DNA of 64,000 nucleotides from Candidatus Binatia bacterium (lineage in GTDB: Bacteria > Desulfobacterota > Binatia > UBA9968): NCBI GenBank assembly GCA_041483675.1, contig JBGPGE010000001.1, forward strand, positions 868 through 64,867, given 5' to 3'. This document shows, piece after piece, positions 9,766-44,365 of the stretch (positions are counted from its first letter, which is position 1; each line of letters opens with the position of its first letter). The translations under genes were made by a program, and so were the position numbers. A model generated the notes under the pieces. It was not told the origin of the DNA. It searched no databases and worked only from the letters and a program-made list of their open reading frames with translations.

Positions 9766-10470
9766 TCAGGCCCCCGCCCTCTCTATCGCATAGTCGCGCT
9801 TGAGCAATAGGGCGAGCACGTCGTCGGGCTCGCGGTGCGCGTCGATAAATCCCCTGACGGCGTCCAGCTCCGCGGCGCTGAAGTGCGGGCTCAATTTCTG
9901 CATCAAGACATCCACCATAGGCGGCTCCAGCCAGCCGTACTCCAGAGAGGCGTCGGCATAGTCGTAGCCGACGACCTTGATGGCCTCCGGGTTCAGGTCG
10001 CCGACCAGGTCGTTGAACACTTCGATGAACAGATCGGTTTTCTCATCGGCCGTTCTCTCAGAGGCAACGGCACGCAGACGCTGCTTCATTTCCTTGCGCA
10101 GCCTCGCTTCCTGGATCGCCACCGCCACCCGGTAGGGCTTGAGCCGCCCGCGGATCAGCTCGAATTCGAGCGGCTCCGCGATCGTTTTGCGAAAGCGCCG
10201 GATAACGAAGGATTCCCGGCCGTTGGTCGCTTCAACGTAGCCGACCCGCATGGGATCGCCGGCGGCGCCGACCGGAAAACATTTTTCCCCGACCTCGGTC
10301 AGGGCCTCGAGCGGATGGCCGGTGTGGCGCTCGAGGAAAGCGCGGCCGTCGTCGCGGGAAAGCTGCCGCTCTTCCCCACCCTCCATGACGTAGGCCGGCG
10401 CGCCGTCGAACCGGGTGATGTGATGGAGTTTGTCGCACTCGCGGCAGCGGATGTATCTTTGCTCGGCCAT
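9766..10470 (-). CDS. Hypothetical protein with an N-terminal CxxC motif, embedded in the signalling operon
   Basis: 234 aa ORF co-oriented between the REC-HK hybrid and REC genes. I recognise no known family. Confidence 0.45.
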   Translation of the reverse strand: MAEQRYIRCRECDKLHHITRFDGAPAYVMEGGEERQLSRDDGRAFLERHTGHPLEALTEVGEKCFPVGAAGDPMRVGYVEATNGRESFVIRRFRKTIAEPLEFELIRGRLKPYRVAVAIQEARLRKEMKQRLRAVASERTADEKTDLFIEVFNDLVGDLNPEAIKVVGYDYADASLEYGWLEPPMVDVLMQKLSPHFSAAELDAVRGFIDAHREPDDVLALLLKRDYAIERAGA

Positions 10471-10479
10471 ACGCCACTC

Positions 10480-11592
10480 CTAAAATCGATGCGACGAAAT
10501 GCGGCTCAGCTCCGGCAACGCGCGCGACGGCAGGCTGAGCAACACCTCGGTGCCGACCCCGCGCTCGCTCTTCAACTTCAATGAGCCGCCGAGAAACTCT
10601 GTCAATCGCCGCGCCGCCGTCAGTCCCAGCCCCAACCCGGCAAACTCCCGGCGCATCGAGCCATCCAACTGCTGAAAAGGCTGGAACAGGCGGTCGATCT
10701 GGTCTTCGGGTATCCCCACGCCGGTGTCCCGGATTTCTATTTCAACCATCCCTTTCTGCGGAACTGTCCGGACTTTGATCGTCACTTTGCCCGCAGGCGT
10801 GAATTTGATCGCGTTGTGCAGCAGGTTCTGCACGATGCGCCCCGTCTTGTTGGGATCGCCGAGGATCATGATCCGGTCCTGCGGCCCTTCGATCGCGAGC
10901 CCCATCCCTTTTTCGTCCGCGAGCTTCTCATAGCGCCGCGCGCACTCCCTGAGCAAGAGGCAGATGTCGAATTCCTCCTCGGTGACGATCAACTCGCCGC
11001 TGTTGAGCGAGGTGATGATCAGCACGTTGTCGATCAGCTCGAGCAGCTCGCCGGAATTTTTGTAGACCTTTTCCAACACCTTGCGCTGGCCGTCGTTCAC
11101 GTCGCCGACCAGTTGATCGAGTAGGATCGACACGAAGCCGATCACCACGCTGAGCGGGGTGCGCAACTCGTGCGAGATATTCGCCATGAACTCCGACCGG
11201 ACGTTGCGCAGTTGCAGCCTGGCGATGCGGCGCTGCAAGGCGCGGCGGATCAACGCCAGGATATGGTTCACGTCGAACGGCTTGGAGATGTAGTCGAAGG
11301 CGCCGAGCCTGAGCCCTTCCACGGCGGTGTCCATCGATCCGTAGCCGGTGATGATGATTGCTTCGATGTCGGGGTCCTGCTCCTTGATCTTTTGCAGTAC
11401 CTTGGTGCCGGGAAGTCCCGGCATCTTGAGATCGACGGTGACGAGATCGACCGGCACTTCGCCGACCAGCCGGATCGCCTCGCTGCCCCGGTCGGTCGCG
11501 AAAACGTTGTAGTAGGGCTTGAGAATCATCTTGAGCGATTCTCTCGGCCCGAGCTCATCATCGACGATCAGTATGTTGGCTCTATCGTCCAT
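10480..11592 (-). CDS. Hybrid REC-histidine kinase (REC + HisKA + HATPase_c)
   Basis: N-terminal REC (ILIVDDELG ... LVTVDLKMPG ... KPF), H-box SHELRTPLSV, and G boxes (GTGVGIP ... GLGLGL). Confidence 0.85.
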   Translation of the reverse strand: MDDRANILIVDDELGPRESLKMILKPYYNVFATDRGSEAIRLVGEVPVDLVTVDLKMPGLPGTKVLQKIKEQDPDIEAIIITGYGSMDTAVEGLRLGAFDYISKPFDVNHILALIRRALQRRIARLQLRNVRSEFMANISHELRTPLSVVIGFVSILLDQLVGDVNDGQRKVLEKVYKNSGELLELIDNVLIITSLNSGELIVTEEEFDICLLLRECARRYEKLADEKGMGLAIEGPQDRIMILGDPNKTGRIVQNLLHNAIKFTPAGKVTIKVRTVPQKGMVEIEIRDTGVGIPEDQIDRLFQPFQQLDGSMRREFAGLGLGLTAARRLTEFLGGSLKLKSERGVGTEVLLSLPSRALPELSRISSHRF

Positions 11593-11637: not shown

Positions 11638-11654
11638 AAGCAACTCACATGCCA
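11638..11654 (-). promoter_or_regulatory. Candidate sigma-54 (-24/-12) promoter TGGCAT-N5-TTGCT upstream of the REC-HK gene
   Basis: The minus strand reads TGGCATGTGAGTTGCTT with correct GG/GC spacing, ~45 nt upstream of the ATG at 11592. An NtrC-type activator gene lies immediately upstream. Confidence 0.5.
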
Positions 11655-11836: not shown

Positions 11837-13243
11837 TCAGCTGGACACTTTTGCGCACTCGATTAACTCGGTATCCTCGGCAATCTGTAATTTTTCCATG
11901 CGATACCGTAGTACTCTTCTGCTGGTGCCGAGCAGAAAGGACGCTTTGGTCTGGTTGAATCCGGTCTTTTGGAGCGCCTTTAAGATCAACTCCCGCTCGA
12001 ACTCATCGACCGCGTCGCCGAGCGGACGCGCCCCTTCGAGCACCGCTTCTTTGAACGCGGGGCGGCTCTCGCCCCGGCGGATCTCCTCGGGAAGATCGTC
12101 CAGCCCGATCGCCTCGTGGCAGATCAATATCGTCAGCCGCTCGATCAGATTTTCCAGCTCTCGCACGTTGCCCGGCCACGAGTAGCCGAGCAGCTTGTCC
12201 ACCACCTCGGCCGACAGCCGCCGCTCGGCGACGGCGTTCTCGCCCGCCTTGACCGTCAAAAAGTGATGCAGCAGCAGCGGGATATCTTCTCTCCGCTCGC
12301 GCAGCGGCGGCAGCGGGATCGACACCACGTTTAAGCGATAAAATAAGTCGGCGCGGAAGCCGCCGTCCCTGGCCAGCTTCTCCAGCTCGCGGTTGCTCGC
12401 GGCGACGATCCGCACGTCCACTTTGTTCTCCTCCGTGCCGCCCAGCCGGTTGAAGGTCTCGGTCTCGATCGCCCGCAGGAGCTTCGACTGCACCGACAAT
12501 CCCATCTCCCCGATCTCGTCGAGGAACAGCGTGCCGCCGTGGGCGCTCTCGAAGTGGCCGATCTTTCTTTGGTAGGCGTTGGTGAACGCGCCTTTCTCAT
12601 AGCCGAACAGCTCGCTCTCGATCAGGTTGTCGGGCAGCGCGGCGCAGTTGACCACGACGAACGGCTTGCTGCGCCGCTCGCTGCCGAAGTGGATCGCGCG
12701 GGCGATCAGCTCCTTGCCCGTCCCGCTCTCGCCGGTGATCAGCACGGTGCTTTTGCGCTTCGCCACTAGGCTGACGGTCTTGAAGACCTCCATCATAGCC
12801 TTGGATTTTCCGACGATGTTCTCGATGCCGTATTTCCGCCCCACCTCTTCTTGCAGCCGCTCCAGCTCCCGGGAAAGACGGCTCCTTTCCAGCGCCCGCT
12901 CCACTCTGAGGCGCAGCTCGTCCACGTCGAACGGCTTGGTCACGTAGTCGAACGCCCCCGTCTCCTTGGCGGAAAAGGCGGTGCGCGCGGTGTTGAGCGC
13001 CGTCAGCATAATGACCTGCCCTTCGGGATGGGCCGCCCTCACCTGCTTGAGGGTTTCGAGGCCGTCCGTCCCCGGCATCATGATGTCGAGCAGGATCACC
13101 TCCGGCGTCTCCTCCTTGACCTTGCGGAGCGCCTCTTCGCCCGACCGGGCCTCGTGCACCCGCAGGCTCTTGCCGAAAATCAGGCGAATCGACTCGCGAA
13201 CCCCCGTCTCATCGTCCACAACTAAAAGCGATGCTTGTTTCAT
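11837..13243 (-). CDS. Sigma-54-dependent response regulator (NtrC/AtoC family: REC + AAA+ EBP + Fis-type HTH)
   Basis: REC, Walker A GESGTGKE, ESELFGYEKGAFT (GAFTGA-like), and a C-terminal HTH. Confidence 0.9.
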   Translation of the reverse strand: MKQASLLVVDDETGVRESIRLIFGKSLRVHEARSGEEALRKVKEETPEVILLDIMMPGTDGLETLKQVRAAHPEGQVIMLTALNTARTAFSAKETGAFDYVTKPFDVDELRLRVERALERSRLSRELERLQEEVGRKYGIENIVGKSKAMMEVFKTVSLVAKRKSTVLITGESGTGKELIARAIHFGSERRSKPFVVVNCAALPDNLIESELFGYEKGAFTNAYQRKIGHFESAHGGTLFLDEIGEMGLSVQSKLLRAIETETFNRLGGTEENKVDVRIVAASNRELEKLARDGGFRADLFYRLNVVSIPLPPLRERREDIPLLLHHFLTVKAGENAVAERRLSAEVVDKLLGYSWPGNVRELENLIERLTILICHEAIGLDDLPEEIRRGESRPAFKEAVLEGARPLGDAVDEFERELILKALQKTGFNQTKASFLLGTSRRVLRYRMEKLQIAEDTELIECAKVSS

Positions 13244-13259
13244 AGTGATCGGAACCCCC

Positions 13260-15110
13260 TTATAAAGCAGGCAACTCGGCGCGCAGCTGGACCGTCTCTC
13301 CGTCCGGGTAGCTGACGCGCAAGCCGCCGCCGTTTCGTTCGAGCAGAATCTTGGCGAGCAGGACGCGCAGCGGCAGCGCCTCCTCCCCGCCCTGCGCCGC
13401 CGTCAAGCCGAGATAGCGCGTGAGCGAGCTGATGCCGGCGGCCTCGCGGAGATACGAGATCACCACGGCGCCGCCGTTTTCCACTTTGACCTGGATCGAA
13501 TTTTTCGATTTCGCCTGGCTCAGGATCGCCAGAAATAGATTTTTGAAAGCAAAGAGAAAATGGGCTTTGTCGGCGAGGACCGCCATCGTCCGCCCCCGCT
13601 TGCCCCACTCGACGTTCTTGTCGTCCTTCACGGAATCCGGCAAGAGATCGTCGTGGATCCGGGAGAGCTGCTCGTAGAGATAGATCCGCTCCTTGGCCGG
13701 CTGGTTGAAGCGCGCGAATTCGAGCAGGGCCTCCAGCAGATCGTCCATCCGTTGAACGTCGTTGCTCACCGTCTCCTGGAAGCGGGAGCGGAAAGCGGCG
13801 TCGTCGAACCGGTCGCCGAGCAGTTGGGAGAAGGTCTTGATCGTGACCATCGGATTTTTAAGCTCGTGCGCCAGCTCGGTCATGAACAGGCGGAGGTCCG
13901 GCGGCTCGCCGTTGGCCGTCCGCGCGGCGGCGCTTCCGTTCTGCTGGGTCGCCGAACTGGACGTCTGATTTTCTTCAGCGGGCGGAGTGTCGCGGCGCGC
14001 TTCCGCAGAGGCGCCGGCGGAAATCGGCGCGCGCTCGGAGGTGAATTCAAAGATTAGATCCGGCGCGTCGAGCAGCTCTTTCCTGTGCGTCGCGAAGCTT
14101 CGGGCGACGACCGCCTCCAGCTCATCGAGATTGCCGAACCACAGATAGTTGCGCAGCCGGTCCACCGCCGCGGGAGAAAAAACCGCACGGTTCAAGCCCA
14201 GCCGCGCGCCGCATTCCCCGGCCAGCGCAGCCGCCAGGGCGGCGATATCGGCCTGCCGCTCCCGGAGCGGCTGAAGGCGGAGCACCAGCGCCGCCAGCCG
14301 GTAGTAGAGCGGATCGAGAAACGTCCCGCGGTAAACGCTCTCCAGCAAATCCGCGTGCGCGCTGGAGATGAGTTGGAGAGTTCTTCCCTCAGCCTCGCTC
14401 TCGCCCAAAAAGTCGATGAGGCCCGACTGAGCCGTGAGGCTCATGCGCTCGACACCGTAAAGAAACAAAGTCAACCGCGCCCCCGCCGGGCGTTCTTCGA
14501 CTCGCGCCTTGAGGTAGCCCTTCCCGATCTCCGGCGCATGGATAAACAGCGGCGTGCCGGCCTCCGAATTCAGCCGGTGGATCGCCCGCGCCACCCGCTC
14601 CTGCCCGCAGCCGGCCTCGCCGAGGATCAGCAGCGGAAACGGCGCCGCGGCGAACTTCTTGACCAGCGTCGCGACGGACTCTGGCACGTAGGGATACTCA
14701 AGACGAGAAAGGTCCGCGGCGCACGCGGGGACGACCGTCGACGGTTTCGCCGGCTGAGCGGCGGCTTGCGCCAATAGCCGCGCCACTTTTTCTCTCAGCT
14801 CGTAGGGATTGAACGGCTTGGCCAGGAGGTCGACATGCTTCGCGCCGGGATCGAACGGCGCGGTGGGCCGGGAGTCCGCCAGGAACAGCACGGGACAGGA
14901 GAACCGCGCGGCGACACGCGCGAGCGCCGCCGGCTCGGAGGCGGCCGTGCCGCCGACCGCCAGAATCATCAGGTCGATCTCCGTGCCGGAAATACCGGCG
15001 CTTCCGCTCTCCAGCGAGGCGCCGTGCGAGACCGCAAAATCGGGCCCGAGAATGAGCGCGACGGTCTCTCGCACGGCGGCGGACGGATCAATGACTCGAA
15101 TACGCTTCAT
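13260..15110 (-). CDS. Atypical signalling protein: REC-like domain, degenerate sigma-54-activator-like AAA domain and HK-like DHp/CA domains
   Basis: 616 aa. N-terminal receiver-like segment with KPF. The Walker-A-like GEAGCGQE is degenerate and GAFTGA is absent. An H-box-like HELKNPMVTIKTF is followed by a poorly conserved CA region. The gene overlaps the upstream HK gene by 23 nt. Confidence 0.65.
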   Translation of the reverse strand: MKRIRVIDPSAAVRETVALILGPDFAVSHGASLESGSAGISGTEIDLMILAVGGTAASEPAALARVAARFSCPVLFLADSRPTAPFDPGAKHVDLLAKPFNPYELREKVARLLAQAAAQPAKPSTVVPACAADLSRLEYPYVPESVATLVKKFAAAPFPLLILGEAGCGQERVARAIHRLNSEAGTPLFIHAPEIGKGYLKARVEERPAGARLTLFLYGVERMSLTAQSGLIDFLGESEAEGRTLQLISSAHADLLESVYRGTFLDPLYYRLAALVLRLQPLRERQADIAALAAALAGECGARLGLNRAVFSPAAVDRLRNYLWFGNLDELEAVVARSFATHRKELLDAPDLIFEFTSERAPISAGASAEARRDTPPAEENQTSSSATQQNGSAAARTANGEPPDLRLFMTELAHELKNPMVTIKTFSQLLGDRFDDAAFRSRFQETVSNDVQRMDDLLEALLEFARFNQPAKERIYLYEQLSRIHDDLLPDSVKDDKNVEWGKRGRTMAVLADKAHFLFAFKNLFLAILSQAKSKNSIQVKVENGGAVVISYLREAAGISSLTRYLGLTAAQGGEEALPLRVLLAKILLERNGGGLRVSYPDGETVQLRAELPAL

Positions 15111-17241
15111 GGACTTGAGGGCGATACTTGGCTCCCGATTGCGCGACGTATTTCAACGGCAGATTGATGAAGAACGCGGTCCCCCGACCGACCCCGCTCT
15201 CGACCAGGATATGGCCGCCGTGTTCCTTGACGATCTGGTGCGAGATGGAAAGGCCCAGCCCGTTCCCGTCTTTTTTCGTCGTGAAAAACGGATTAAAGAT
15301 GTTTTCGAGGTCCTTTTCCGGAATGCCGACGCCGGAATCCCGCACCTCGATTTGCACAAATTGCTCGTGGCCGTTCACCGGGGAGAGATGCGTGGCGATC
15401 TCAACCACGCCACCGCCTTCGATGGATTGAATGGCGTTTAGAATGAGATTCATGCAGACCTGCTTGGTCTGCTCTTTGTCAACGAAGATCTTGGGCAGGC
15501 CGGAAGCGAGGCGGAGCGCGATCCGCACGTCCTTGTCCTTCGCTTCGGTGTCCAGGAGGCGCGCGATGTTGTCGACGATGTCATTGATATTCTCGGCGGT
15601 CACGTTGGGCGTCGAAGGACGGGCGAAGCTCAGCAGGTCGGTGACCAAGCCGCAGATGCGGTCCACTTCCTTCAACGCCAGGCTCTGGAAGCTGTCGCGA
15701 AAATCTTTGTCCTCGTACCGTTCCGGCAGGAGCTGGGTGAAAGTCCGGATCGCCACCAGCGGGTTGCGGATCTCGTGGGCCAAGCCGGCCGTCAACATGC
15801 CGAGCGAGGAGAGCCGGTCCGCCCGGCGGATGATGTTCTGCGACTGTTTTAGATTTTCGTAGAGCCGGGCGTTGTCGATCGCGATCGCCGCCTGGTTGGC
15901 GAGCGTGGAGAGCACCTCGATATCCTCGTAAGAGTACATCGCGTTGCCCTCGCGGTGGCCGAGGTTGAGCATCCCGATGAGGCGGTCTTTGGTGAGGAGC
16001 GGCAGAGTCACCTCGGCCTCAAGCTGCGCCATCTTGGCCGACGCTTCCAGGGTCTCGCGGCCGTCGCGCAGCATCTCCAGCTCCTCCCGGATGATCGCCT
16101 CGCGCCGCTTGACGAGCGTCCGCACCAGGGGGTCGTCCTGCGCCACCACGGGCTGCTGCGACGGCTCGTACTTCAGGCCGACGTTGCTCTTGATCCGAAA
16201 CGAGCCGTTGCTTTCCTCCAGGAGAAACAGCGAGGCCTTCTCGATCTCCAGCGCCTTCACCACCGTCTGCACCAGGTTCTGGCACACGGCTTCCAGATCG
16301 ACCATGGAGATCATCTCCCTGCTGGAGCGGAGCAGAGTCTCGCGGTAGTCGTAATGCTTTTTGAACAGCACGCGCTCGAAGGCCTCCTCCGTGCGGAACC
16401 GCACCTTCGGGAAAAAGAAGCCGACGAGGATGAATAACGCCAGGGCGACGAGCGAAAATCCCGCGCTGACCTCCCCGAAAAAGAGCATCTGCGTCCCGAC
16501 GAGGACGAGATGACATGGAATGAGAAGCGCCAGCAGCAGGCAGGCGTAGATCAGGCTGCGCTTGATGACGACGTCGATGTCGAGGAGGCGGTACTGGATG
16601 ATCGCGTAAGCGATGATCCCCGCATGGATATTGGTAAAAATAAAACCGATCGGGTAAAGCTCGACGCCGTAATTCATCAGGAAGTCGAGCCCGGCGAGCG
16701 AGTAGATGATCGTGGATATGTACACATAGGTTACCTGGTTGACCCGCCCAGGCTGACCGGACAGATCGCGCCGGTGGGCAACAAGGAAGGCCAGCCCCGC
16801 GATCAGCAACGCGACCAGGAACACGAGGTACACGGGGTGGAGCACCCCGGCTTGCGGGTAATAGCCCCAGTAACCGCGGTAGACTCCCGCTACGAATGCG
16901 TCGCCGGTCCAGGTGGCGACCAGGAAGGCCGCGCCGACGCCGTACGACAGGTAGGCGACGATCCGCTTTCGGACGCTGTTCGTGAACTCGACGACGAAGT
17001 GAAAGAATGCGATGGGAATAAATATGATGCCGGAATATCCGAGGCGGGTCACGGTGTCGGCCGCGTGCGGATTCTGCAAGTTGAAGAGGACCGTCCAGTT
17101 TCCCTGCCAGTAAGCCGTGAGAAAACACCATAACGCAAAAGTGCGGCTGAGCGACGAGCGCGGATTTCTGAGCAAAACGAAGAATCCGAGACCGGAGGCA
17201 AGAAGGGCCGTGAGCAGTGAAGGGATAGAGTAAAGATTCAT
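15088..17241 (-). CDS. Membrane sensor histidine kinase with N-terminal 7TM sensor domain, GAF, HisKA and HATPase_c
   Basis: Seven predicted TM helices in the first ~280 aa, H-box AHEIRNPLVAI, and N/G boxes. Confidence 0.85.
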   Translation of the reverse strand: MNLYSIPSLLTALLASGLGFFVLLRNPRSSLSRTFALWCFLTAYWQGNWTVLFNLQNPHAADTVTRLGYSGIIFIPIAFFHFVVEFTNSVRKRIVAYLSYGVGAAFLVATWTGDAFVAGVYRGYWGYYPQAGVLHPVYLVFLVALLIAGLAFLVAHRRDLSGQPGRVNQVTYVYISTIIYSLAGLDFLMNYGVELYPIGFIFTNIHAGIIAYAIIQYRLLDIDVVIKRSLIYACLLLALLIPCHLVLVGTQMLFFGEVSAGFSLVALALFILVGFFFPKVRFRTEEAFERVLFKKHYDYRETLLRSSREMISMVDLEAVCQNLVQTVVKALEIEKASLFLLEESNGSFRIKSNVGLKYEPSQQPVVAQDDPLVRTLVKRREAIIREELEMLRDGRETLEASAKMAQLEAEVTLPLLTKDRLIGMLNLGHREGNAMYSYEDIEVLSTLANQAAIAIDNARLYENLKQSQNIIRRADRLSSLGMLTAGLAHEIRNPLVAIRTFTQLLPERYEDKDFRDSFQSLALKEVDRICGLVTDLLSFARPSTPNVTAENINDIVDNIARLLDTEAKDKDVRIALRLASGLPKIFVDKEQTKQVCMNLILNAIQSIEGGGVVEIATHLSPVNGHEQFVQIEVRDSGVGIPEKDLENIFNPFFTTKKDGNGLGLSISHQIVKEHGGHILVESGVGRGTAFFINLPLKYVAQSGAKYRPQVHEAYSSH

Positions 17242-17256: not shown

Positions 17257-18543
17257 TCAGCTCGCATCGTATTTGCGGATAAGGCATGCGGCGTTGTAGC
17301 CGCCGAAGCCGAAGGACATGGACATCATGGTATCGACCTGGCGGCAGGACCCCTCGTTCGGAAGATAATTGAGATCGCAGAGCGGATCGCGCTCACGGAG
17401 GTTGATGGTGGGATGGAGATAGCGGTGCTTCATCATCAAACAGCAGGCGATCAGCTCCAGCGCTCCGCCGGCGCCCAGCGTGTGGCCGGTAAGCGGCTTG
17501 GTCGCGCTTATCGGAATCGCATAGGCCGCCTCGCCGAAGGCCTTGCGTAGAATGGCCGCCTCGCCGCGGTCATTGTCCGGGATGGCGATGCCGTGCGGAT
17601 TGATGTAGCCGACCTCCGCCGGATTCACGTGCGCCTCTTTGAGCGCGCCATGGATGGCCACGACCGGCTGCTCGAAACTCGGATCGAACGACATCACATG
17701 GTAGGCATCCGCCGAGCTGCCGAATCCCAGCACTTCGGCATAAATCCGCGCGCTGCGTTTGAGCGCGTGATCGAGATCTTCCAGAATCAGAATGCCGGCC
17801 CCCTCGCCCAACACAAAGCCGCTCGCGTCCTTGCTGTAAGGCCGAAACGAGGTCTCCGGGCTGTCGTTCTCGGTCGACAACAGTTGGATCGAAGAGAGCG
17901 TCGAGACCACCAGCGGCGTGATCGGCGCCTCGGAACCGCCCGCCAGGATCACGTCGTTCTCTCCGTCCCGGATGCTGTGAAAGGCTTCGCCCACGGCCCA
18001 GGTTCCGGAAGCGCAGGCCGTGGTAATCGTGCGCGACGGCCCCTTGATCTTGAGGTTCAACGTGATCTGGGTCGCGGCGCTGCTGGGGATCACCGAGGTT
18101 CCGAAGAACGGGTTGATCCTCGTCACCCCCTTCTCATAGAAAAGAGCGATCTGTTGCTCGGCGTAGCACAGCGTCCCGACGGAAGTTCCAAGGACGACTC
18201 CGGTTCTGGATTGCTCCCCGTTGTCGATCTTAAGGCGCGCATCTTTGACCGCGAGCTTGGCCGCGGCGAGCCCTAACTGCGCGAACCGGTCGATCCGGCG
18301 CGCCAGTTGCAGCGGCATGAAGTCCCCGGGGTCGAAATCCGAAATCTCCGCCGCGATCTGGCAAGGGTAGGTGGAAGCGTCGAAGCTGGTGATTTTTTTG
18401 ATGCCGGATCGGGCCGCGCGCAACGAGTCCCAATAGGCGGTCTTGCCGGTGCCGATCGCGGAGACCACCCCGAGTCCGGTAATCACCACGCGCCGGTTCC
18501 GCCCTTTCCCGTTGCTCGATCCGTTGCCGTTGCTATGAGCCAT
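17257..18543 (-). CDS. Beta-ketoacyl-ACP synthase II-like condensing enzyme (KAS/FabF family)
   Basis: 428 aa with active-site Cys TACASG and the two-His motifs (NPHGIA; KPLTGHTLGAGG). It has a Ser/Asn/Gly-rich N-terminal extension. It sits in an operon with sensor kinases rather than with fab genes. Confidence 0.8.
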   Translation of the reverse strand: MAHSNGNGSSNGKGRNRRVVITGLGVVSAIGTGKTAYWDSLRAARSGIKKITSFDASTYPCQIAAEISDFDPGDFMPLQLARRIDRFAQLGLAAAKLAVKDARLKIDNGEQSRTGVVLGTSVGTLCYAEQQIALFYEKGVTRINPFFGTSVIPSSAATQITLNLKIKGPSRTITTACASGTWAVGEAFHSIRDGENDVILAGGSEAPITPLVVSTLSSIQLLSTENDSPETSFRPYSKDASGFVLGEGAGILILEDLDHALKRSARIYAEVLGFGSSADAYHVMSFDPSFEQPVVAIHGALKEAHVNPAEVGYINPHGIAIPDNDRGEAAILRKAFGEAAYAIPISATKPLTGHTLGAGGALELIACCLMMKHRYLHPTINLRERDPLCDLNYLPNEGSCRQVDTMMSMSFGFGGYNAACLIRKYDAS

Positions 18544-37254: not shown

Positions 37255-39399
37255 TCAGGGCTGCTCGCTTATTGAATCGGCAACTGCGGAAGAAACTTTA
37301 GTCTCTGCGAGGAGTTTTTCGTAAAGCCCGGTGATCTGCTTATGATCCAGGCCGTCGTCCTGCCAGTATTGCTGGACGTCGGGCCAGAGGCTGCCGATCC
37401 ACTTGACGTAGAACCGCAGCCGGTCCGACTCCTCGCGCTCCGGCTCGGCGCCCGGAGCGACCAGAACGCTCTCCGGCGTGTAAACGGTCTTCCATCCGGC
37501 GGCTTCGGCCTGCAAACAGAAGTCGATGTCGTGCAGGCCGGCGGTATAGCCTTCGTCGATACCGCCTAGGGCGAGAAAGAGCTCCCGGCACGCGAGCAGA
37601 CAACCGCTGACCGCCCGCATCGCCCGCCGCTTGGCGGCGCCGGGTAGAGAGGCCGGAAGGAGTTGATAGAGAGACGAGGGGCTGAAGTTCATATCGAAAG
37701 CGATGCCGGCATGGTGGATCATCCCCTGAGGGTCGATGATCTTTCCGCCCACGATGCCGGTCGCCGGATCTCGTTCCATCTCCTCGACCAGGGCCTCCAG
37801 CCATCCGGGCTGCGGAATCAGACCGGGGGGCAGGATGCAAAGATAGCGCCCCCTGGCCTCCCTCGCGGCAAGATTCAAGAGCGTCGCGATCGACGTCGAA
37901 GAAGACGGGATCGAACGGACATCCCCCTGGACAAAGTCCTGAAGAGCCCGGCTCTCGTCGCCGGCCCCTGCCAAAAGACATTCGTAAGAGATGTCGGCAG
38001 ACGTGTGCTGCGCGACCCCGATGAGGCTCTCCGCCACGCCTTCCATCGAGGTAAAGGGAATGACGATCGAGCAAAGGAATTCTTCGCCTCCCGGTTTCTT
38101 GGCTGACGGGACGTGCGACGAGTTGCGCCTGGCGGCCGGCGCCCGCTTGTTGACCTCCTCCCGCGTCTCGAGCATCTGTTGGATCAGGTCGAGCGTCCTC
38201 TCCATGTTTTCACCGCCAAGCGAATGGAGATTGCGAACCAGATATTGCTCTACCTTCTCTCTCCGCTCTTGCGAAACTCCCTTTTGCAGGATCGACTCCG
38301 CCACTTCCGGCAGGTCCGGCAAGTCGCCGGCCTGATCGGCGACGCCGAGCGAGGTAAACGAGTAATGTTGTCCCGGAACGCGGATCTCCACCAGCGGCTT
38401 GCCGAAGGCCAGTGCCTCCAGACCCGCGGTCGAATTGCCGAACACCGCGCAAACGTCGCTGACCGCCAGGAGCCGGTAGGTGTCGTCCTGCTGGAGCGAA
38501 CGAATGTTGCGAAAGCCGGCGAGCCTCTCGCCGATCTGGTCGATGATCCGTTTGTTGTTGAAGGGATGCCACTTGAAGATCAGGGTCAGGTCCTTCCTGC
38601 GGCGGGCCCAATCGAGCAACGGTTTGGGAAACTCAAAGTCGCTGCCATAACCGAGACCGCCCATCAGGACGGTGACCACGCGCGTTTTGTGGTCGAGCTT
38701 CAGCCGCCGCCGGGTCTGTTTCATCGCCTCCGGCTCCGTCGCCTCGCGTATCGCCGCCGGCAGGTGGGTATTCCCCACCAGATAGATTTTATCCGCCGAG
38801 CTGCCCGAGCGGACCAGCACTTCGCGCGCGGACTCTCCCCACGCGAAGCAGGCGGTCGAGTACTCCGTGTGATAGCGGTAGACTCCCGTGGGTCCCCAGT
38901 AGAGCCCTTCCTGAAGGGTGATGAAAGGAATTCGCAACTCGTTACAGAGATAGCCGAGCATCTTTCCCCAGCTGTTGAGCTCGTGCAGGGCCAGAACCAG
39001 ATCGGGCTTCTCGACCTCGAACATCCGCCGCAGGAGATAGAAATTCTCGAGATGCATGCGCAGCGCTTTGTCCTGGATGGAAAGAGTGAAGTGGTGGAGG
39101 ATGTCGTTCTCCAGGAATCTCTCCTTCCACTGACCCCTCACTTCCCGGTAGGCCCGCTCGATCTCATCGGCGACCTCCGGTGTCAGATAAGAGAACGTAT
39201 GATGGTAAGGCAAACCCTCATCCAGCATCGTGATCTCGAACGGGCTTTCCGCCTGGGCCGTGGGATAGAGGACTTCCATGCCCCGGGCCGCCAGCGCGCG
39301 CGTGATCGGGAAGAGGAAACGGCCGTGATGCTTGAGCGCGATGAAGCAGAACGCCTTCTTGCCTTTAAGATCCATAATGAGCGGCCTCCGGTTTGGCAT
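37255..39399 (-). CDS. Two-domain glycosyltransferase: N-terminal GT-B-like (TagF/capsule-synthesis-like) domain fused to a C-terminal GT2 (GT-A) domain. Candidate flagellin glycosyltransferase
   Basis: 714 aa. The N-terminal half has GT-B-like motifs (TVLMGGLGYG ... FKWHP ... GNSTAGLEALAFGKP). The C-terminal ~260 aa has a GT2 pattern (CSIVIPFTS ... DES ... CLLACRELF ... GGIDEGY). It is the first gene upstream of the flagellins. Confidence 0.65.
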   Translation of the reverse strand: MPNRRPLIMDLKGKKAFCFIALKHHGRFLFPITRALAARGMEVLYPTAQAESPFEITMLDEGLPYHHTFSYLTPEVADEIERAYREVRGQWKERFLENDILHHFTLSIQDKALRMHLENFYLLRRMFEVEKPDLVLALHELNSWGKMLGYLCNELRIPFITLQEGLYWGPTGVYRYHTEYSTACFAWGESAREVLVRSGSSADKIYLVGNTHLPAAIREATEPEAMKQTRRRLKLDHKTRVVTVLMGGLGYGSDFEFPKPLLDWARRRKDLTLIFKWHPFNNKRIIDQIGERLAGFRNIRSLQQDDTYRLLAVSDVCAVFGNSTAGLEALAFGKPLVEIRVPGQHYSFTSLGVADQAGDLPDLPEVAESILQKGVSQERREKVEQYLVRNLHSLGGENMERTLDLIQQMLETREEVNKRAPAARRNSSHVPSAKKPGGEEFLCSIVIPFTSMEGVAESLIGVAQHTSADISYECLLAGAGDESRALQDFVQGDVRSIPSSSTSIATLLNLAAREARGRYLCILPPGLIPQPGWLEALVEEMERDPATGIVGGKIIDPQGMIHHAGIAFDMNFSPSSLYQLLPASLPGAAKRRAMRAVSGCLLACRELFLALGGIDEGYTAGLHDIDFCLQAEAAGWKTVYTPESVLVAPGAEPEREESDRLRFYVKWIGSLWPDVQQYWQDDGLDHKQITGLYEKLLAETKVSSAVADSISEQP

Positions 39400-40582
39400 C
39401 GCGGGACGTCGTGAGGATGTGGCTGATAATTCCGTTCAGGCTTTTCCTGCGCAATAAGCGCCTCTCGATCCAGGATTCGATCATCGGGATGGCCCGCTCA
39501 GGCTCCGGTTCCATGACGAGGTGCTCCCCCACCCAGGCCTTCTGCCCGAACCGCTGGCTGATAATGGTGAGCTTGTCGTAAAAAGAAGATATCTCCGCGT
39601 AAACCGAACAGGCCGCCCCCCAGACGATATCGCCGTAGAGCAGCGTCCAGAGCCATCCCGGCTCCTCGTTGATGATGACGCAGGGAAGGTCCGCGAGTTC
39701 CTTTCGATAGACCTTCTCGACCATTTCTTTCTCCTTGAGACTGTGGCGCGCGACGTTCGGATCGACGTTCAACACCACGGCGACCGGATACTTGAGCAGC
39801 TTGAGGGCCTTGAGGATCTCCCGCGTCTCATAGATGAAGGCGACATTGTGCGGAATAAAAATCACGGTGCTGCCGCCGAGCATGCGAATCTTCGCCTTGA
39901 GCGCCACTGCCTGCTGAAAATATTCATCGAGCACGGAATCCTGCCGGCAAGAGAGCAGATAGACCTCTTCGGGCGGAAGAATGAAGCTCTGCCCGGGGGA
40001 GGCCAGCTCCTGGGACTCGACGAATGAACGCGAAAACTCGCTCTTGACCGCGTAGTAGTCGGCCAGAGACGCGGCGAAGGTCTGACGGTTGCCGAGCGGC
40101 GAAATTTCGACGCCGATCACGGTGGCCGCGGCTTTTTTTGCCTCCAGCGCCATGCCGCCGTAGAAATGAGACGAATCGGCGGTGGTGTTGTCGATGCCTA
40201 TAAGAGGATAGACCAGGACATCCGGCCGGATCGGCAGCGGCGGTCTCTTGTGGAGGCTGAGACAACCCATGTAGTCGTCCATCGCGATGGTTTTCCACAG
40301 CGGGAGCCGGCTGCCGGGAAAGTCGATGTCCTGAATCAGGCGGATCATCAGATCGGTCATCGAAATCGCGTGCTCGGGCAGATGGCGCACGACCTCTTCT
40401 TCGAGATGAAAACTTTTTATCGGGCTATCCGAGAACGCAGCGCAAATCTCCTTGGAGTGGCTAGCCACGCTCACCTCCCACTGCCCGGTGGCGGCGGCCA
40501 TGCTCACTAAATGGCGCAGTTTCCCGTACGTATATTTCCATTCCACTTCGCCGATGGCGAAAAGAACTTGCGGCTTTTTCAT
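39365..40582 (-). CDS. Hypothetical protein (405 aa) in the glycosylation island
   Basis: Co-oriented ORF overlapping the GT gene by 35 nt. I recognise no clear family motifs. Confidence 0.45.
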   Translation of the reverse strand: MKKPQVLFAIGEVEWKYTYGKLRHLVSMAAATGQWEVSVASHSKEICAAFSDSPIKSFHLEEEVVRHLPEHAISMTDLMIRLIQDIDFPGSRLPLWKTIAMDDYMGCLSLHKRPPLPIRPDVLVYPLIGIDNTTADSSHFYGGMALEAKKAAATVIGVEISPLGNRQTFAASLADYYAVKSEFSRSFVESQELASPGQSFILPPEEVYLLSCRQDSVLDEYFQQAVALKAKIRMLGGSTVIFIPHNVAFIYETREILKALKLLKYPVAVVLNVDPNVARHSLKEKEMVEKVYRKELADLPCVIINEEPGWLWTLLYGDIVWGAACSVYAEISSFYDKLTIISQRFGQKAWVGEHLVMEPEPERAIPMIESWIERRLLRRKSLNGIISHILTTSRDAKPEAAHYGS

Positions 40583-40752
40583 CCGTTAAGGCCTCCTGCG
40601 GCAGAACTCGGCTTGAACCGGAAGAAGCAATTAACATGCCCGGCAAAAGGGGAAAATTTTGCCGCCTGAAAAACATTTTTTCGCAGTCTGAATCCTTACT
40701 TAAGACTCTCCGCGAGAAACCGATTAGAAGCTTGAAGCAAGGAGTATTTGCC

Positions 40753-41370
40753 ATGAAGTCGCAAACTACATATCGCGAGATCGAAGATTTCTCTCCCGCC
40801 GGATTCCCGCTCTGCGAGCCTCGCAGCCCGATGGCGGTGAATAAGGGCAGCGTCCTGGCCTATCTGGCAACGGTCCTGGCGACCATGGCCCAGGAGCTGG
40901 CGCGTTCCCCAAAGACAGATTCCACCTGTCTCCTCTGTTCCGACGCGATCCACTCGACCCAGGTGACGGCCGAGGATCAAGGAAATCCGGTCCACGCCAT
41001 ATGCCTTGAGATGAAACAGCGAAAAAACGCCCTTTTGCAGAAGGCCAAACAGCACGATCATGCCTGCGAGCTCTGCGGGCAAAAAGTGCCGCCCACCGGC
41101 ATTTATCTCCACGAGGCCGGCTTGACGCTCTCCTACGCCTGCGCGGAGGGGAGACATGACGAGCCGAATCTCTTTTCTCTGCCGGTGACGACGGAGGAGA
41201 GCCGACGCGTCGGAATGTGGGAGGCCAGGCTGCGCGAGCGGCTGAAGCAAAAAGGATTCGTGCGTTGTTGTGAATGCGGCCGCCTGATCCACCAGGGAAA
41301 GGCCCGCCTCCTGGGGCCGGGATGGCACTATTGCGGCTGCCTGCCGGAGCTTTGGAGAACGGGACCCTAG
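40753..41370 (+). CDS. Cys-rich hypothetical protein (opposite strand to the island genes)
   Basis: Start at an internal Met preceded by AAGGAG. Multiple CxxC/CC pairs (LCSDAIH ... CELCGQ ... CCECGRL ... CGC). Confidence 0.4.
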   Translation: MKSQTTYREIEDFSPAGFPLCEPRSPMAVNKGSVLAYLATVLATMAQELARSPKTDSTCLLCSDAIHSTQVTAEDQGNPVHAICLEMKQRKNALLQKAKQHDHACELCGQKVPPTGIYLHEAGLTLSYACAEGRHDEPNLFSLPVTTEESRRVGMWEARLRERLKQKGFVRCCECGRLIHQGKARLLGPGWHYCGCLPELWRTGP

Positions 41371-41401
41371 CGGCATTCCGGGAAGATGAAGGGAAACCGC
41401 T

Positions 41402-41749
41402 GTGAACATCCCCGTCCTACTCCATGAGATCGCGCGATGGGCCGTTCCATTTTTGACCGTCCCCGCCGATGTCAAAAAGCGGGCGGACAGCGGTCTTCTG
41501 ACACCCGCGGATTGCCGACTCATTGCCGGGCAACTGAGCGACCTCGGACGATCTCTCGCCGGGAAAGACCACGCCAATGAGGCCGCGCGTTTGGGCGAGG
41601 AGACGGTGAAGCTCGTCCGCCTCGCGCAAGAGGACGGCGAGCTGAGAGAGTGCCTGCAATCCCTCTATGAGATATCCGGCCAACAGCCCCGGCGCGCCTG
41701 CCTGCAATTCTTTTTCTCCCTCGCTTCATTTCGCCGCACACCCCACTGA
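41402..41749 (+). CDS. Hypothetical protein
   Basis: 115 aa ORF following the Cys-rich gene. No recognisable features. Confidence 0.25.
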   Translation: MNIPVLLHEIARWAVPFLTVPADVKKRADSGLLTPADCRLIAGQLSDLGRSLAGKDHANEAARLGEETVKLVRLAQEDGELRECLQSLYEISGQQPRRACLQFFFSLASFRRTPH

Positions 41750-41909
41750 GGCCCGATCCTAACTCCCTAAGCGACTCCCCGGGGCGTAAGCTCGCGGCTT
41801 CCAAGTGAAAGCCGGTGCCCGGTCGGAGATCCCGCGCATCCGATACTGCCGGTGGAAATAAGTAGCTACCCATTGCGCGGGATCGGAGAGCGGGTGCCGG
41901 CTTTCGTCG

Positions 41910-42710
41910 TCAAGAGCGATTCTCTAAGAACTTCCACGACATCACTTCCTGCTTGGCCGCGCCCCCGGCCTGGGGAAAGACGAAGCTGTCGGGCCGCGTC
42001 GTATTGCGCGCCGTCAGCTCCGGCCGGCTGTCCAGGAAACGAACAATGTCGTCGGCGTCGAAATCGGCCCGGACGGGATACAGCGCCTCATAGATCTCCC
42101 TGACCAGATCGAGATCCTCCTGGTAATCGACGCACAGGCGGTAGCGCGGCCGATCAAGATTTTCCGGCGCGCGGAGGTTGAGCAGGCGGTAGCGCTGCGG
42201 GTTGCGATAGATAAAGGGCGAAACGTTGCCGCGGTCGTAGGGATCGCTCGTCAAACGCGACACTTCGCGCAGCAAGCCGGCCGAATAGAGCTGAACGTCG
42301 AAGCCGATGGGGAACGAAAGAACGTCGAGCACATTGGTGAGATAATCGCAGCCGCCCGTGAGATACCGGGTAACCGCAGCATCGACGATGCCGGGGTCGA
42401 TCAGCGGACAGTCACCGGTAATGTCGGCGACGATATCGGCGTCGAGCGACTGCGCGGCGCCGATAAGGCGCCCCAGCACGTCGTCCAGAGAGCCGCGGTA
42501 GCAGGCGACGCCTTCAGTTCCCGCAATCTCTTCGAGAACGTCGTCCGGCGGTTCCGCGCTCGTCGCCAAACAGACGGCATCGACTTTTTGGCATCGCTTC
42601 AACCGCTCCAGCAGGCGCCGCGCCATCGGTTGTCCGAGAATCGGCTTTAAATGTTTCCCCGGCAGCCGGCTGGAGCTCATCCGGCTCCTGACCGTGGCCA
42701 CAACTCGCAT
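41910..42710 (-). CDS. Cytidylyltransferase (SpsF/PseF-like CMP-sugar synthetase family, CTP_transf_3)
   Basis: N-terminal RSRMSSSRLPGKHL motif and 266 aa. Confidence 0.65.
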   Translation of the reverse strand: MRVVATVRSRMSSSRLPGKHLKPILGQPMARRLLERLKRCQKVDAVCLATSAEPPDDVLEEIAGTEGVACYRGSLDDVLGRLIGAAQSLDADIVADITGDCPLIDPGIVDAAVTRYLTGGCDYLTNVLDVLSFPIGFDVQLYSAGLLREVSRLTSDPYDRGNVSPFIYRNPQRYRLLNLRAPENLDRPRYRLCVDYQEDLDLVREIYEALYPVRADFDADDIVRFLDSRPELTARNTTRPDSFVFPQAGGAAKQEVMSWKFLENRS

Positions 42711-42932
42711 CGAAGCTATCCCTCTTTTTTTGGTTCTTCCGGGTTTCCTGTGGGGGAGTATTCACCACAGAGGCACAGAGTTCGCAGAGTTCGGAGTATT
42801 ACTTCATCAAAAACTCTTTACTCCGCGACCTCAGCGCCTCTGCGGTGCAATATCCGAATCCTTCTTTACCGCGAACTGGAACAGCGTTGACCCGCTTACC
42901 CATACAGAAGTCTCAAGCCCCCCTTTTTTCGG

Positions 42933-44162
42933 CTACTCCAACAACTCGATCTTCGGCGTCAGCGAGAGCACCTTGGAACTGAGACCGTAACGATCGCGGA
43001 TGTCGCGGGTGATTTCGGCGCTGTACTGGGAGCAGACCAGAATGTAGTCGGGCGCGTTTTTCTGAAGAACCTCAGGCGGCGACACCGCGGTATCGAGATT
43101 CAAAAACTTAAGGCCGTGTTTTCTTCCATCCCGATCGACCACTGCCGTCACCCGCTCGGCGAGCAGCGGCGCGAGCGTCAAGAGCGTGATGCCGAAGGAG
43201 CCGGCGCCCCAGAGGGCGAGGGTCGATCCCTGGCGATTCAGCTTTTCAGCGAGAGAAGTCAACTGCGAGAGATAGGCGTCGAACCGGCTCGCGAAATCCT
43301 TGGCCTGCCCGACCAACCGCTCGACGCGAGACCGGTCGTTGGAGATCTCCGGCCTTCCGGACGCTATGCTGCATAAGGCGACTAAATTCCCCGTCTCATC
43401 AAACAGCCGCTCGACTTTCAGCCCCGCCCGCTCCAGACAAACGCGGAGAGAATTGGGCGTGAAAACCGAGAGATGCTCGAAGTGACAAGGGAGACCCAAG
43501 GGATTGTGCTCGACGAAATAGGCCCCGTTGGGCGTCTCGATAGCGACGAAGCCGTCCGCCCGAACACACTCGCGCGCAGCCGCCGCAAACTTCACGGGAT
43601 CGTCGAGATGCTCGATCAGGTGGCGATTGATCACCGCGCCGAAGCTGCCGCGATCGAACAGCTCGGGTGAAAAGAATTCGCGGACGATCGGAATGCCTCG
43701 CTGCTCGCCGATCTTCGCCCCTTCGCTAGGATCGCAGCCGAGCACCGAAAACCCCTCTTTGGCGAGCTGCAGGAGTAGATAGCCGTCGTAGCAGCCGATC
43801 TCCAGGATGCGCGCTCCCGCTGGCAGCCGCGGCTTGATGTTCTCTTTGAACACGGCGACAAATTCATCCGCGTCCTCAGTGGCGAAGCCCAGCTCCAGCT
43901 TGGATAGATAGGTGGTGTAGAGGCTGCGATAGAGGTCCTGAAGCATGTCGTCGCTCGGTCTCGACAGCAGAAGAAAATGGCCGCAATCGCGACAAATGCC
44001 CAGCCTGAGCGGTAAAGTGGGCGAAATATTCTTGCTTTTCAGCTCGGCGATCCCCGCGTCGGAGATCGGCCGCAGCACCAGGGGAAATTGCGGAAACGCG
44101 CAGACCGGCTCGATATTTTTGCCGCGGCAGACATTACACTCGTGGACATCCAGTAGTTTCAT
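42933..44162 (-). CDS. SAM-dependent methyltransferase with N-terminal Zn-ribbon (sugar C-/O-methyltransferase type)
   Basis: CNVCRG ... CRDCGH zinc-ribbon, then class-I MTase motif ILEIGCYDG. The start at 44162 has a strong RBS GGAGAGG. Confidence 0.7.
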   Translation of the reverse strand: MKLLDVHECNVCRGKNIEPVCAFPQFPLVLRPISDAGIAELKSKNISPTLPLRLGICRDCGHFLLLSRPSDDMLQDLYRSLYTTYLSKLELGFATEDADEFVAVFKENIKPRLPAGARILEIGCYDGYLLLQLAKEGFSVLGCDPSEGAKIGEQRGIPIVREFFSPELFDRGSFGAVINRHLIEHLDDPVKFAAAARECVRADGFVAIETPNGAYFVEHNPLGLPCHFEHLSVFTPNSLRVCLERAGLKVERLFDETGNLVALCSIASGRPEISNDRSRVERLVGQAKDFASRFDAYLSQLTSLAEKLNRQGSTLALWGAGSFGITLLTLAPLLAERVTAVVDRDGRKHGLKFLNLDTAVSPPEVLQKNAPDYILVCSQYSAEITRDIRDRYGLSSKVLSLTPKIELLE

Positions 44163-44225
44163 AATTTTCCTCTCCGTTCTTGGAACTTGCTCCATTTCAC
44201 TGGAGGTCGACTACCTCCCCATTCC

Positions 44226-44333: not shown

Positions 44334-44365
44334 TGCCCCCGACCCGATCGGGGGGCGAGGGGTTT

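Follow-up and report, generated by a model that had tools for sequence, protein, structure and literature searches.

A predicted pseudo-enzyme encoded between a sensor kinase and an NtrC-type activator in Candidatus Binatia keeps a single conserved histidine site

Gene X and its domain layout

The window analysed here is a 64,000-nt stretch of DNA from a Candidatus Binatia bacterium (GTDB lineage Bacteria; Desulfobacterota; Binatia; UBA9968; GenBank assembly GCA_041483675.1, contig JBGPGE010000001.1, positions 868 to 64,867 of the forward strand). On its minus strand lies a 616-aa open reading frame (ORF), here called gene X, in which a receiver-like (REC) domain, an AAA+ domain of the enhancer-binding protein (EBP) type, a DHp histidine hairpin and a CA-like domain are joined in one protein. 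We conclude that X is a pseudo-enzyme: by sequence criteria it lacks ATP binding at either of its two ATPase folds, phosphorylation of a receiver Asp and contact with sigma-54, and, to judge by its motifs, the HisKA histidine site is its sole conserved chemistry. Its place as the third component of a conserved operon, in the order ketoacyl synthase, histidine kinase (HK1), X and NtrC, is well supported. A sequence-only reading of this DNA had already described X as a fusion of a receiver-like domain, a degenerate EBP AAA domain and a DHp/CA module lying between a seven-transmembrane (7TM) sensor kinase and an NtrC-type activator; Pfam matches, alignments and Foldseek bore out the fusion, and Pfam identified both neighbours as described. 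The domain calls below are based on Pfam, NCBIfam, phmmer against PDB, Foldseek, an AlphaFold2 (AF2) monomer model with its predicted local distance difference test (pLDDT) scores, and BLASTP and family-profile alignments.

13260..15110 (-): gene X, 616 aa, with pseudo-REC, pseudo-AAA+ (EBP type), DHp and pseudo-CA modules (ORF, Pfam, homologues, AF2, Foldseek)
14757..15110 (-): pseudo-receiver, residues 1-118 (family profile, AF2 beta-alpha fold, Foldseek to 4l4u and 1ny5)
14265..14693 (-): pseudo-AAA+ alpha/beta subdomain, residues 140-282 (Sigma54_activ_2, alignments to NtrC1 and the neighbouring NtrC, pLDDT about 90)
14046..14264 (-): AAA+ lid subdomain, residues 283-355, with the invariant YLWFGN(L)xE(L)E at 14115..14147 (AAA_lid_14)
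13902..14042 (-): disordered, fast-evolving tether, residues 357-403, joining the REC-AAA and transmitter-like modules (pLDDT <50)
13701..13901 (-): DHp (HisKA) hairpin, residues 404-470, with the H-box ELAHELKNPMVTIKTF at 13830..13877 (Pfam HisKA)
13263..13691 (-): pseudo-CA, residues 474-616 (profile alignment to the HK1 CA, motif table, Foldseek)

The ORF opens with ATG, and its start lies 23 nt inside the 3' end of the upstream 717-aa gene (15088..17241), so the ORF coordinates reproduce the 23-nt overlap with the stop of the 7TM kinase gene that had been noted from the letters alone. Pfam matched Sigma54_activ_2 (residues 149-282, E 1.6e-13), AAA_lid_14 (residues 283-360, E 1.3e-12) and HisKA (residues 406-470, E 4.9e-11, 43 bits against a cut-off of 26.9) on X, with Sigma54_activat found as two fragments (46.3 bits against a cut-off of 20.2). 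Neither Response_reg nor HATPase_c had a Pfam match on X, and nor did HTH_8, in place of which HisKA and a CA-like fold occupy the C-terminus. Every NCBIfam match on X fell far under its cut-off, which places the protein outside all curated families. The AF2 model contains four folded modules (mean pLDDT 76), with disorder (pLDDT <50) in the linker, a flexible tether of 47 residues, and in segment 558-577, the place expected for an ATP lid.

Loss of catalytic motifs around a conserved histidine

We inspected the motifs of X against NtrC1 (PDB), the neighbouring NtrC and 116 full-length homologues (40 of them in alignment A1), and the substitutions described here are kept family-wide and are not errors of one sequence. 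The pseudo-receiver is a true receiver homologue: its family profile scores 41 bits on the REC of the neighbouring NtrC and only 14-17 bits on other receivers. Foldseek aligns the REC and AAA modules together over about 390-408 columns to NtrC1, NtrX, NtrC4, VpsR, LuxO and FleQ. Strand 3 of the domain reads LMILAVGG (14949..14972, -), and the acceptor Asp is absent from residues 49-54 (ILAVGG), the acceptor position being Ala51 in X and Gly51 in at least 90% of homologues. The triplet K98-P99-F100, which carries the Lys at the end of strand 5, is invariant, and PF00072 matches some X homologues although the X of the window has no such match.

The AAA module belongs to the EBP clade by homology, with a PDB phmmer match to NtrC1 at E 5.7e-19 and Foldseek template-modelling (TM) scores, normalised to the target, of about 0.7 against the AAA domains of PspF and NtrC1. 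Its catalytic motifs are replaced one after another. The Walker A GEAGCGQE (residues 164-171; 14598..14621, -) has Gln in place of Lys, and this Gln170 is near-invariant in the family; Walker B reads TLFLYG in place of TLFLDE (within TLFLYGVE, 14448..14471, -); the arginine finger segment FRxDLYYRL has become FLDPLYYRL (14295..14321, -); and in sensor II GNVREL has become GNLDEL, with Asp replacing the Arg. At the GAFTGA loop about 11-14 residues are gone or unalignable relative to NtrC1 and the neighbouring NtrC, and in our motif table of cluster representatives GAFTGA is present in no X-like protein that carries an H-box. The state of Walker A varies among X-like representatives, some distant clades having retained its Lys and the Arg of sensor II. 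In the lid, columns W324, F325, N327 and E330 are invariant.

The CA-like domain has decayed in a similar manner. Its N box, FKNLFLAILSQ, has Ala in place of the second Asn, the G1 position (SYLREAAGI) lacks DxGxG, and the G2 position (EALPLR) lacks GxGLG. Because these boxes are absent and Pfam finds no HATPase_c, X is predicted to be unable to bind ATP at its CA. PF02518 was absent from all X-like matches of the protein searches, and intact N, G1 and G2 boxes occur in just one X-like representative, P0215. The fold itself is retained: Foldseek matches the C-terminal part of X to the cytoplasmic domain of ZraS (9jfj_A, E 4e-12, 214 columns).

The histidine hairpin between these modules is conserved. 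His415 (codon at 13866..13868) is invariant in the family alignment together with E416, N419 and P420. A census of 117 X-like cluster representatives found His in all of them (117/117), Asn at +4 in 117/117, Pro at +5 in 116/117 and Glu or Asp at +1 in 114/117, while V at +7, K at +10, T at +11 and F at +12, all in helix 1, hardly vary. The E/DxxN/T motif beside the His has a phosphatase role in HisKA kinases, and X matches it with HELKN at the level of the sequence motif. The sequence-only reading had pointed to the degenerate Walker A, the missing GAFTGA loop, the H-box-like ELAHELKNPMVTIKTF (found at residues 412-427) and the poorly conserved N, G1 and G2 boxes, and had labelled X a pseudo-enzyme; each of these observations stands, and motif loss across the family supports the label. 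A conventional bifunctional enzyme is ruled out by the per-motif inspection across the family, as neither Walker A/B, GAFTGA nor the CA boxes are intact in X. Since X lacks the catalytic features that define an EBP, a response regulator or a histidine kinase, it should not be filed as any of these.

Distribution of the X family and selection on its domains

More than 100 full-length homologues of X were found at 42-57% identity, all of them from metagenome-assembled genomes (MAGs) labelled Candidatus Binatia or 'Deltaproteobacteria', and X is present in 80 species-level genomes of the GTDB collection. A hidden Markov model (HMM) search of 1.84 billion cluster representatives added many X-like proteins, with scores as low as about 200 bits. 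In more than 100 clusters the X-like ORF is single, intact and about 600-640 aa long. Neither the protein searches, the cluster representatives nor the GTDB genome scan yielded a cultured or specifically named member; all were from MAGs.

The HMM search of cluster representatives also found X-like forms without REC, of about 460-520 aa. About 25 X-like proteins of about 515 aa, together with 7001..8548 of the distant contig L083, make up a REC-less subgroup that retains a Walker A (GEQGTGKE) and sensor II (GNLRELE). Its H-box reads ELVHRIKNP in 24/26 cases, with the Glu at +1 lost to Arg and the His and Asn kept. This Glu is needed for autokinase activity. Since the REC-less subgroup has lost Glu(+1) while keeping Walker A and sensor II, the pattern of decay differs between lineages.

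The ratio of nonsynonymous to synonymous substitution rates (dN/dS; Nei-Gojobori, 23 pairs of X orthologues) and the mean pairwise identity of each domain were set beside the values for the live paralogues in the same genomes:

X pseudo-REC: dN/dS 0.12; mean pairwise identity 0.51; live paralogue, NtrC REC, 0.73
X pseudo-AAA+: dN/dS 0.21; mean pairwise identity 0.45; live paralogue, NtrC AAA, 0.84
X lid: dN/dS 0.16; mean pairwise identity 0.57; live paralogue, NtrC lid, 0.72
X linker: dN/dS 0.44; mean pairwise identity 0.14; live paralogue, none
X DHp: dN/dS 0.05; mean pairwise identity 0.69; live paralogue, HK1 DHp, 0.90
X pseudo-CA: dN/dS 0.13; mean pairwise identity 0.43; live paralogue, HK1 CA, 0.65

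Evolution is faster in the dead domains than in the live paralogues, yet dN/dS is well below 1 in the folded modules; the dead domains of X remain under selection. By dN/dS, identity and census alike, no part of the protein is under tighter constraint than the H-box, which supports a role at the histidine site. With nearly all of its enzymatic motifs gone, X might be taken for a decaying fusion without function, or for an artefact of assembly. We regard this as having almost no chance of being right, given an intact ORF in more than 100 clusters and 80 species-level genomes, dN/dS of 0.05-0.21 in every folded domain, confidently predicted folds and synteny that is kept across distant lineages. 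A pseudogene or a mis-assembly is thus contradicted by the conservation, dN/dS and synteny of X.

The conserved cassette and its sigma-54 promoter

Gene X is part of a gene cluster, all on the minus strand:

17257..18543 (-): FabF-like beta-ketoacyl synthase, 15 nt upstream of HK1
15088..17241 (-): HK1, a complete 7TM + GAF + HisKA + HATPase_c kinase (HisKA_7TM; Pfam)
11837..13243 (-): cassette NtrC, complete, with Response_reg + Sigma54_activat + AAA_lid + HTH_8, 16 nt downstream of X (Pfam)
11639..11654 (-): sigma-54 type -24/-12 promoter TGGCATGTGAGTTGCT (TGGCAT-N5-TTGCT), 47 nt upstream of HK2
10480..11592 (-): HK2, a REC + HisKA + HATPase_c hybrid kinase, probable sigma-54 target of the cassette NtrC (Pfam, synteny, promoter)
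9766..10470 (-): conserved 234-aa protein without a Pfam family, downstream of HK2
9358..9732 (-): single-domain receiver closing the cluster

Across the 80 loci the order is FadL/TodX (opposite strand), [ketoacyl synthase], HK1, X, NtrC, HK2, [234-aa protein], [single receiver]. X lies directly upstream of NtrC in nearly all of the 80, and in the related loci the two genes mostly overlap by 4-26 nt or are separated by a gap of <30 nt. HK1 is upstream of X in most of the 80, and its overlap with X is 23 nt in 31 of 56 related loci; one clade at about 32% identity has no adjacent HK1 and keeps X, NtrC, HK2 and the 234-aa protein. NtrC is thus the constant partner of X, in this clade as well as in distant contigs.

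The distant members P0145, P0368 and P0355 derive from samples of 'Deltaproteobacteria' or Thermodesulfobacteriota type. Distant contigs repeat the arrangement of ketoacyl synthase, HisKA_7TM/GAF kinase, X and NtrC, after which come a sigma-54 promoter, a gene with a receiver domain and a homologue of the 234-aa protein; HK1 lies upstream of X in L082, L083 and L084, and a REC-HD (HD_5) protein takes the place of HK2 in L083 and L084. Against the window proteins, HK1, NtrC and the synthase of these lineages score about 470-570 bits and X just 117-135 bits, as expected for a fast-evolving pseudo-enzyme. The PEP-CTERM PrsK/PrsR system was considered as an identity for the kinase-activator pair and rejected, as HK1 (159 against 300 bits) and NtrC (395 against 502.6 bits) are both under the NCBIfam cut-offs.

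Of 67 equivalent intergenic regions, 57 carry a TGGCATGTGAGTTGCT-type promoter element, and it recurs in the distant contigs L081 and L084. Strict sigma-54 matches in 1.18 Mb of locus DNA numbered 65, of which 57 fall at the promoter position ahead of HK2 and none upstream of FadL, the synthase or HK1. A scan of the whole window gave 24 matches against 20.9 expected, no better than chance, so only the site at 11639..11654 is meaningful there, because it is conserved across loci. From this conserved promoter ahead of HK2 it follows that the cassette NtrC most likely drives the next tier of signalling genes, in a two-tier cascade where one regulator activates the next signalling operon. The cassette NtrC itself has GAFTNA in place of the canonical GAFTGA; 64 of 78 orthologues share this variant, which is thus conserved and not an error.

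We observed several further features of the cassette and its surroundings. The 234-aa protein (9766..10470) contains conserved CRxCDxxHH, HxGHxLE and DPMxVGYxExTNGRE motifs, which suggest that it may bind a metal, and its homologue always follows the sigma-54-driven receiver gene, distant contigs included (63-109 bits). The ketoacyl synthase (17257..18543; L083 3576..4829; L084 1502..2746) stays with the kinase-X-NtrC core in distant lineages, and a FadL/TodX outer-membrane transporter (18858..20156, +) lies divergently upstream in most Binatia loci. The synthase, FadL and REC-HD genes together hint at a lipid-derived signal, loosely like DSF/RpfG signalling, a suggestion that is speculative. 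Near FadL, two genes without a Pfam match (20165..22159, +, 664 aa; 22334..23755, -, 473 aa) recur ahead of the cassette, in 28 and 23 of the 80 loci respectively. Elsewhere in the window, 2280..5018 (+) encodes a 912-aa hybrid kinase with REC, three GAF, HisKA and HATPase_c domains, which adjoins a PrpF-family gene (1001..2137) and an ABC transporter operon (5082..9264).

Flagellar gene expression had been proposed in the sequence-only reading as a read-out for X, and here the wider comparison pointed elsewhere: no flagellin or FliD gene occurs within 10 kb of X in any of the 80 related loci, and the conserved promoter fronts HK2. X was accordingly rejected as a flagellar regulator, the flagellar genes of the window starting about 17 kb off and the sigma-54 promoter fronting the next signalling gene. 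The gene run at 28531..56032, which includes flagellins (32086..32958 and 36103..36969), fliD (34608..35948), and sugar-nucleotide, methyltransferase and asparagine-synthase-like genes, looks like a flagellin glycosylation island. A sigma-54-like TGGCAT-N5-CTGCT lies at 32987..33002 (-), 29 nt upstream of one flagellin, though the pattern is no commoner than chance in the window.

Likeness of X to its neighbours

The C-terminal 220 residues of X align with the HK1 transmitter, at 34% identity over 152 residues (BLASTP, E 1e-16) covering the hairpin and the start of the CA, and the profile of this half scores 90 bits on HK1 against 10 bits on HK2. The N-terminal half is collinear with the neighbouring NtrC (residues 6-337 against 8-369, E 1e-20). 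The less diverged X of P0145 gives the same pairing, with a median of 153 bits on cassette NtrCs against 82-132 bits on other EBPs in the loci, and a median of 61 bits on HK1s against 18-24 bits on other kinases. That the N-terminal half resembles an NtrC without its DNA-binding domain, and the C-terminal half an HK1 without its sensor, is well supported by these alignments. X may possibly have originated when the HK1-NtrC pair was duplicated in tandem and a later deletion fused the first NtrC, cut after its AAA+ lid, to the second kinase, cut before its DHp; starting from HK1-NtrC-HK1'-NtrC', such a deletion would give the order HK1-X-NtrC. In one distant lineage two tandem 7TM/GAF kinase paralogues lie upstream of X (L084 2750..7056). 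Genes of the cassette therefore do undergo tandem duplication, as the proposed origin requires.

The likeness to HK1 also invites the reading that X acts on HK1, either as a DHp heterodimer that blocks autophosphorylation or as a substrate phosphorylated in trans by the CA of HK1. RetS inhibits GacS by such kinase-kinase pairing, the DHp of X is collinear with and 34% identical to that of HK1, and the 23-nt gene overlap would favour co-assembly at the site of synthesis. Paralogous kinases, however, usually lose the capacity to heterodimerise as they evolve, X and HK1 are unlike in helix 2 and in the pre-His segment, the clade of X without an adjacent HK1 still keeps NtrC, and the REC-AAA half of X would be left unexplained. 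We therefore consider pairing with HK1 to be quite unlikely.

A proposed role at the NtrC receiver

The docking residues on helix 1 of the DHp of X are those of HK1 and differ from those of HK2. Taken together, the data favour phosphoryl chemistry at the histidine hairpin of X aimed at the receiver of the neighbouring NtrC. We tentatively propose, at somewhat less than even confidence, that X is an ATP-independent phosphatase or phosphate sink on this NtrC, tethered by a decoy REC-AAA module. In such a scheme X would neither autophosphorylate nor remodel sigma-54, and would dimerise via the four-helix bundle of its DHp. Because the helix-1 docking residues are the same as those of HK1, the bundle would be predicted to dock on the NtrC receiver. 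Phosphorylated NtrC (NtrC~P) would then lose its phosphoryl group either through an ATP-independent phosphatase action of the HExxN motif or by back-transfer to His415. X might thereby reset or buffer NtrC~P, fixing its threshold and off-rate either constitutively or under conditional masking, and so control the sigma-54-dependent expression of the downstream genes for the REC-kinase, the 234-aa protein and the receiver. The tethered dead REC-AAA module may be a decoy, directing X to NtrC or HK1 or masking the DHp of X itself.

Comparison with known kinases and phosphotransferases places the transmitter-like half of X closest to ZraS/AtoS-type kinases. With these HisKA kinases that pair with NtrC-type regulators (ZraS 9jfj, AtoS, HK1) X shares the HE(L/I)(K/R)NP H-box, the continuation TF.QLL...D..FR..F and the CA fold, and it differs from them in lacking the N, G1 and G2 boxes and any sensor or membrane part, and in carrying a dead regulator fused at its N-terminus. 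RedE, of the Myxococcus RedCDEF system, is a kinase-like protein incapable of autophosphorylation; it takes up phosphate from a receiver and acts as a phosphatase on RedF~P (PMC2755868). By description it is encoded, like X, with a true kinase and regulators in a multi-component ('four-component') system, and by analogy it offers a direct precedent for a non-autophosphorylating kinase-like phosphatase. The same descriptions set it apart from X, in that RedE has no REC or AAA+ module and acts with a single-domain receiver where X would act with a sigma-54 activator.

ChpT has a DHp four-helix bundle with a transferring His and a Bergerat-like domain, and neither binds ATP nor autophosphorylates (PMC3433190). 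This design of ChpT (Caulobacter) and Spo0B (Bacillus) is shared by X in sequence motifs and predicted structure only, and it leads to the alternative that X is a dimeric histidine phosphotransferase whose His415 would receive phosphate from a receiver of the cluster (the hybrid kinase REC or the single REC) and relay it to NtrC, or the reverse. In its favour, an invariant-His DHp joined to a CA-like domain without ATP binding follows the plan of ChpT (PMC3433190), further receiver domains are encoded in the cluster, and RedE does take phosphate from a receiver. However, HK1 and NtrC already form a complete pair, and HK1 has no receiver to feed a histidine phosphotransferase; the other receivers of the cluster come after the sigma-54 promoter, at a level of the hierarchy below NtrC, and vary by lineage between a REC-kinase hybrid and a REC-HD protein. 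X also departs from ChpT in keeping a full HisKA H-box with HExxN, in its extra 400-residue pseudo-REC/pseudo-AAA module and in adjoining a kinase without a receiver. Neither ChpT nor Spo0B was among the PDB phmmer matches of X at E <= 0.01, and the lack of a ChpT sequence match in that search counts against the relay. Shuttling of phosphate by X, as suggested from the sequence, is plausible, but we judge a relay of this kind unlikely.

The N-terminal half of X finds its best PDB matches among NtrC-family EBPs (NtrC1 of Aquifex, 1ny5/4l4u; NtrX, 5m7p; VpsR, 7v2b), with which it shares the REC, AAA+ and lid folds in the same order. From these X is set apart by the loss of the acceptor Asp, Walker A Lys, Walker B DE, arginine finger, GAFTGA and helix-turn-helix (HTH), and by a kinase-like transmitter module where the DNA-binding domain would be. 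Some of these losses have parallels: VpsR is described as EBP-like and without the conserved residues required for the sigma-54 mechanism (PMC6158489), and Caulobacter NtrC is an EBP-like protein without GAFTGA (bioRxiv 2023.06.06.543975).

This half of X could also act without any phosphoryl chemistry, as an anti-activator or scaffold whose REC-AAA module co-assembles with NtrC into mixed REC dimers or a poisoned AAA+ ring, or whose kinase-like half binds the NtrC AAA+ as NifL does on NifA. Accessory proteins encoded beside an EBP and acting through protein contact, as X would, are found in NifL-NifA, FleN-FleQ, PspA-PspF and HrpR/HrpS. NifL-NifA is a precedent for a kinase-like protein acting on an EBP, with NifL keeping nucleotide binding and its His being dispensable, while FleN and PspA have folds unrelated to X. 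Mixed or co-dependent EBP assemblies exist as well: HrpR and HrpS are described as paralogous EBPs that work only together (PMC3105312). HrpR and HrpS differ from X in being active ATPases, and X differs from the anti-activators in joining a dead EBP to a His-retaining transmitter module. The REC-AAA half of X is collinear with NtrC over about 330 residues and keeps both the beta5-alpha5 KPFxxxEL segment and the lid motif, and hetero-oligomerisation of AAA rings between X and NtrC, an idea from the sequence-only reading, is plausible. Acting without phosphoryl chemistry would nevertheless leave unexplained why His415, Asn419 and the H-box are most conserved while AAA and REC drift, and one X-like subgroup lacks REC altogether. 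Because the H-box is the most constrained part of X, this explanation fits the conservation less well, and we consider it very unlikely.

A broader possibility is that X represents a hitherto unrecognised class of partner mimics, each combining in one chain dead versions of a kinase and its regulator, that bridge kinase and activator. The pseudo-REC would then contact a DHp, the DHp would contact the NtrC receiver and the dead AAA+ would sit in or on the activator ring, with phosphate on His415 gating ring assembly. We give this bridging only a slim chance. The links of the cassette to a ketoacyl synthase and FadL would then point to lipid-derived signalling.

Several points weigh against the proposed phosphatase or sink. 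The predicted role rests on sequence, all homologues come from uncultured organisms, the X-NtrC contact is itself a prediction, and the interdomain arrangement is uncertain in the AF2 model (predicted TM score, pTM, 0.42). The invariant His with HExxN would suit a phosphotransferase equally well as a phosphatase, and HK1 too carries HEIRNP and could itself be a phosphatase, so that a second one seems redundant. The helix-1 likeness between X and HK1 may in part be the signature of a kinase subfamily that pairs with NtrC and not of a shared partner. Finally, with the Lys of Walker A and the Arg of sensor II still present in some distant clades, the AAA may bind nucleotide there and have a role that the proposal does not capture.

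Implications

Each module of X has precedents, in receivers without Asp, in EBPs without GAFTGA and in DHp hairpins joined to a dead CA, and a described protein combining them was not found. Literature searches returned nothing specific on a REC-AAA-HisKA pseudo-enzyme, and the homologues are all MAG-derived, carry generic names and fall below NCBIfam cut-offs, in agreement with the remark in the sequence-only reading that no characterised protein has this arrangement. Should X prove to be a dedicated phosphatase, sink or relay, its automatic annotation as a 'DNA-binding NtrC family response regulator' or a 'sigma 54-interacting transcriptional regulator' would be wrong, and the X family would record a stepwise decay of AAA+ and GHKL ATPases around one kept active site, a natural case for the origin of a pseudo-enzyme from duplicated signalling partners.

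Two-component systems are usually read as pairs, and here a third gene, with only a phosphohistidine site left of its enzymatic sites, stands between the kinase and the activator in all genomes that carry the cassette. If X does bridge kinase and activator as a mimic of both, it would be a new way to build thresholds or memory into sigma-54 cascades. If X is a dedicated phosphatase, sink or relay, the kinetics of sigma-54 cascades in Binatia and Desulfobacterota-type bacteria would not be predictable from the kinase and regulator alone.

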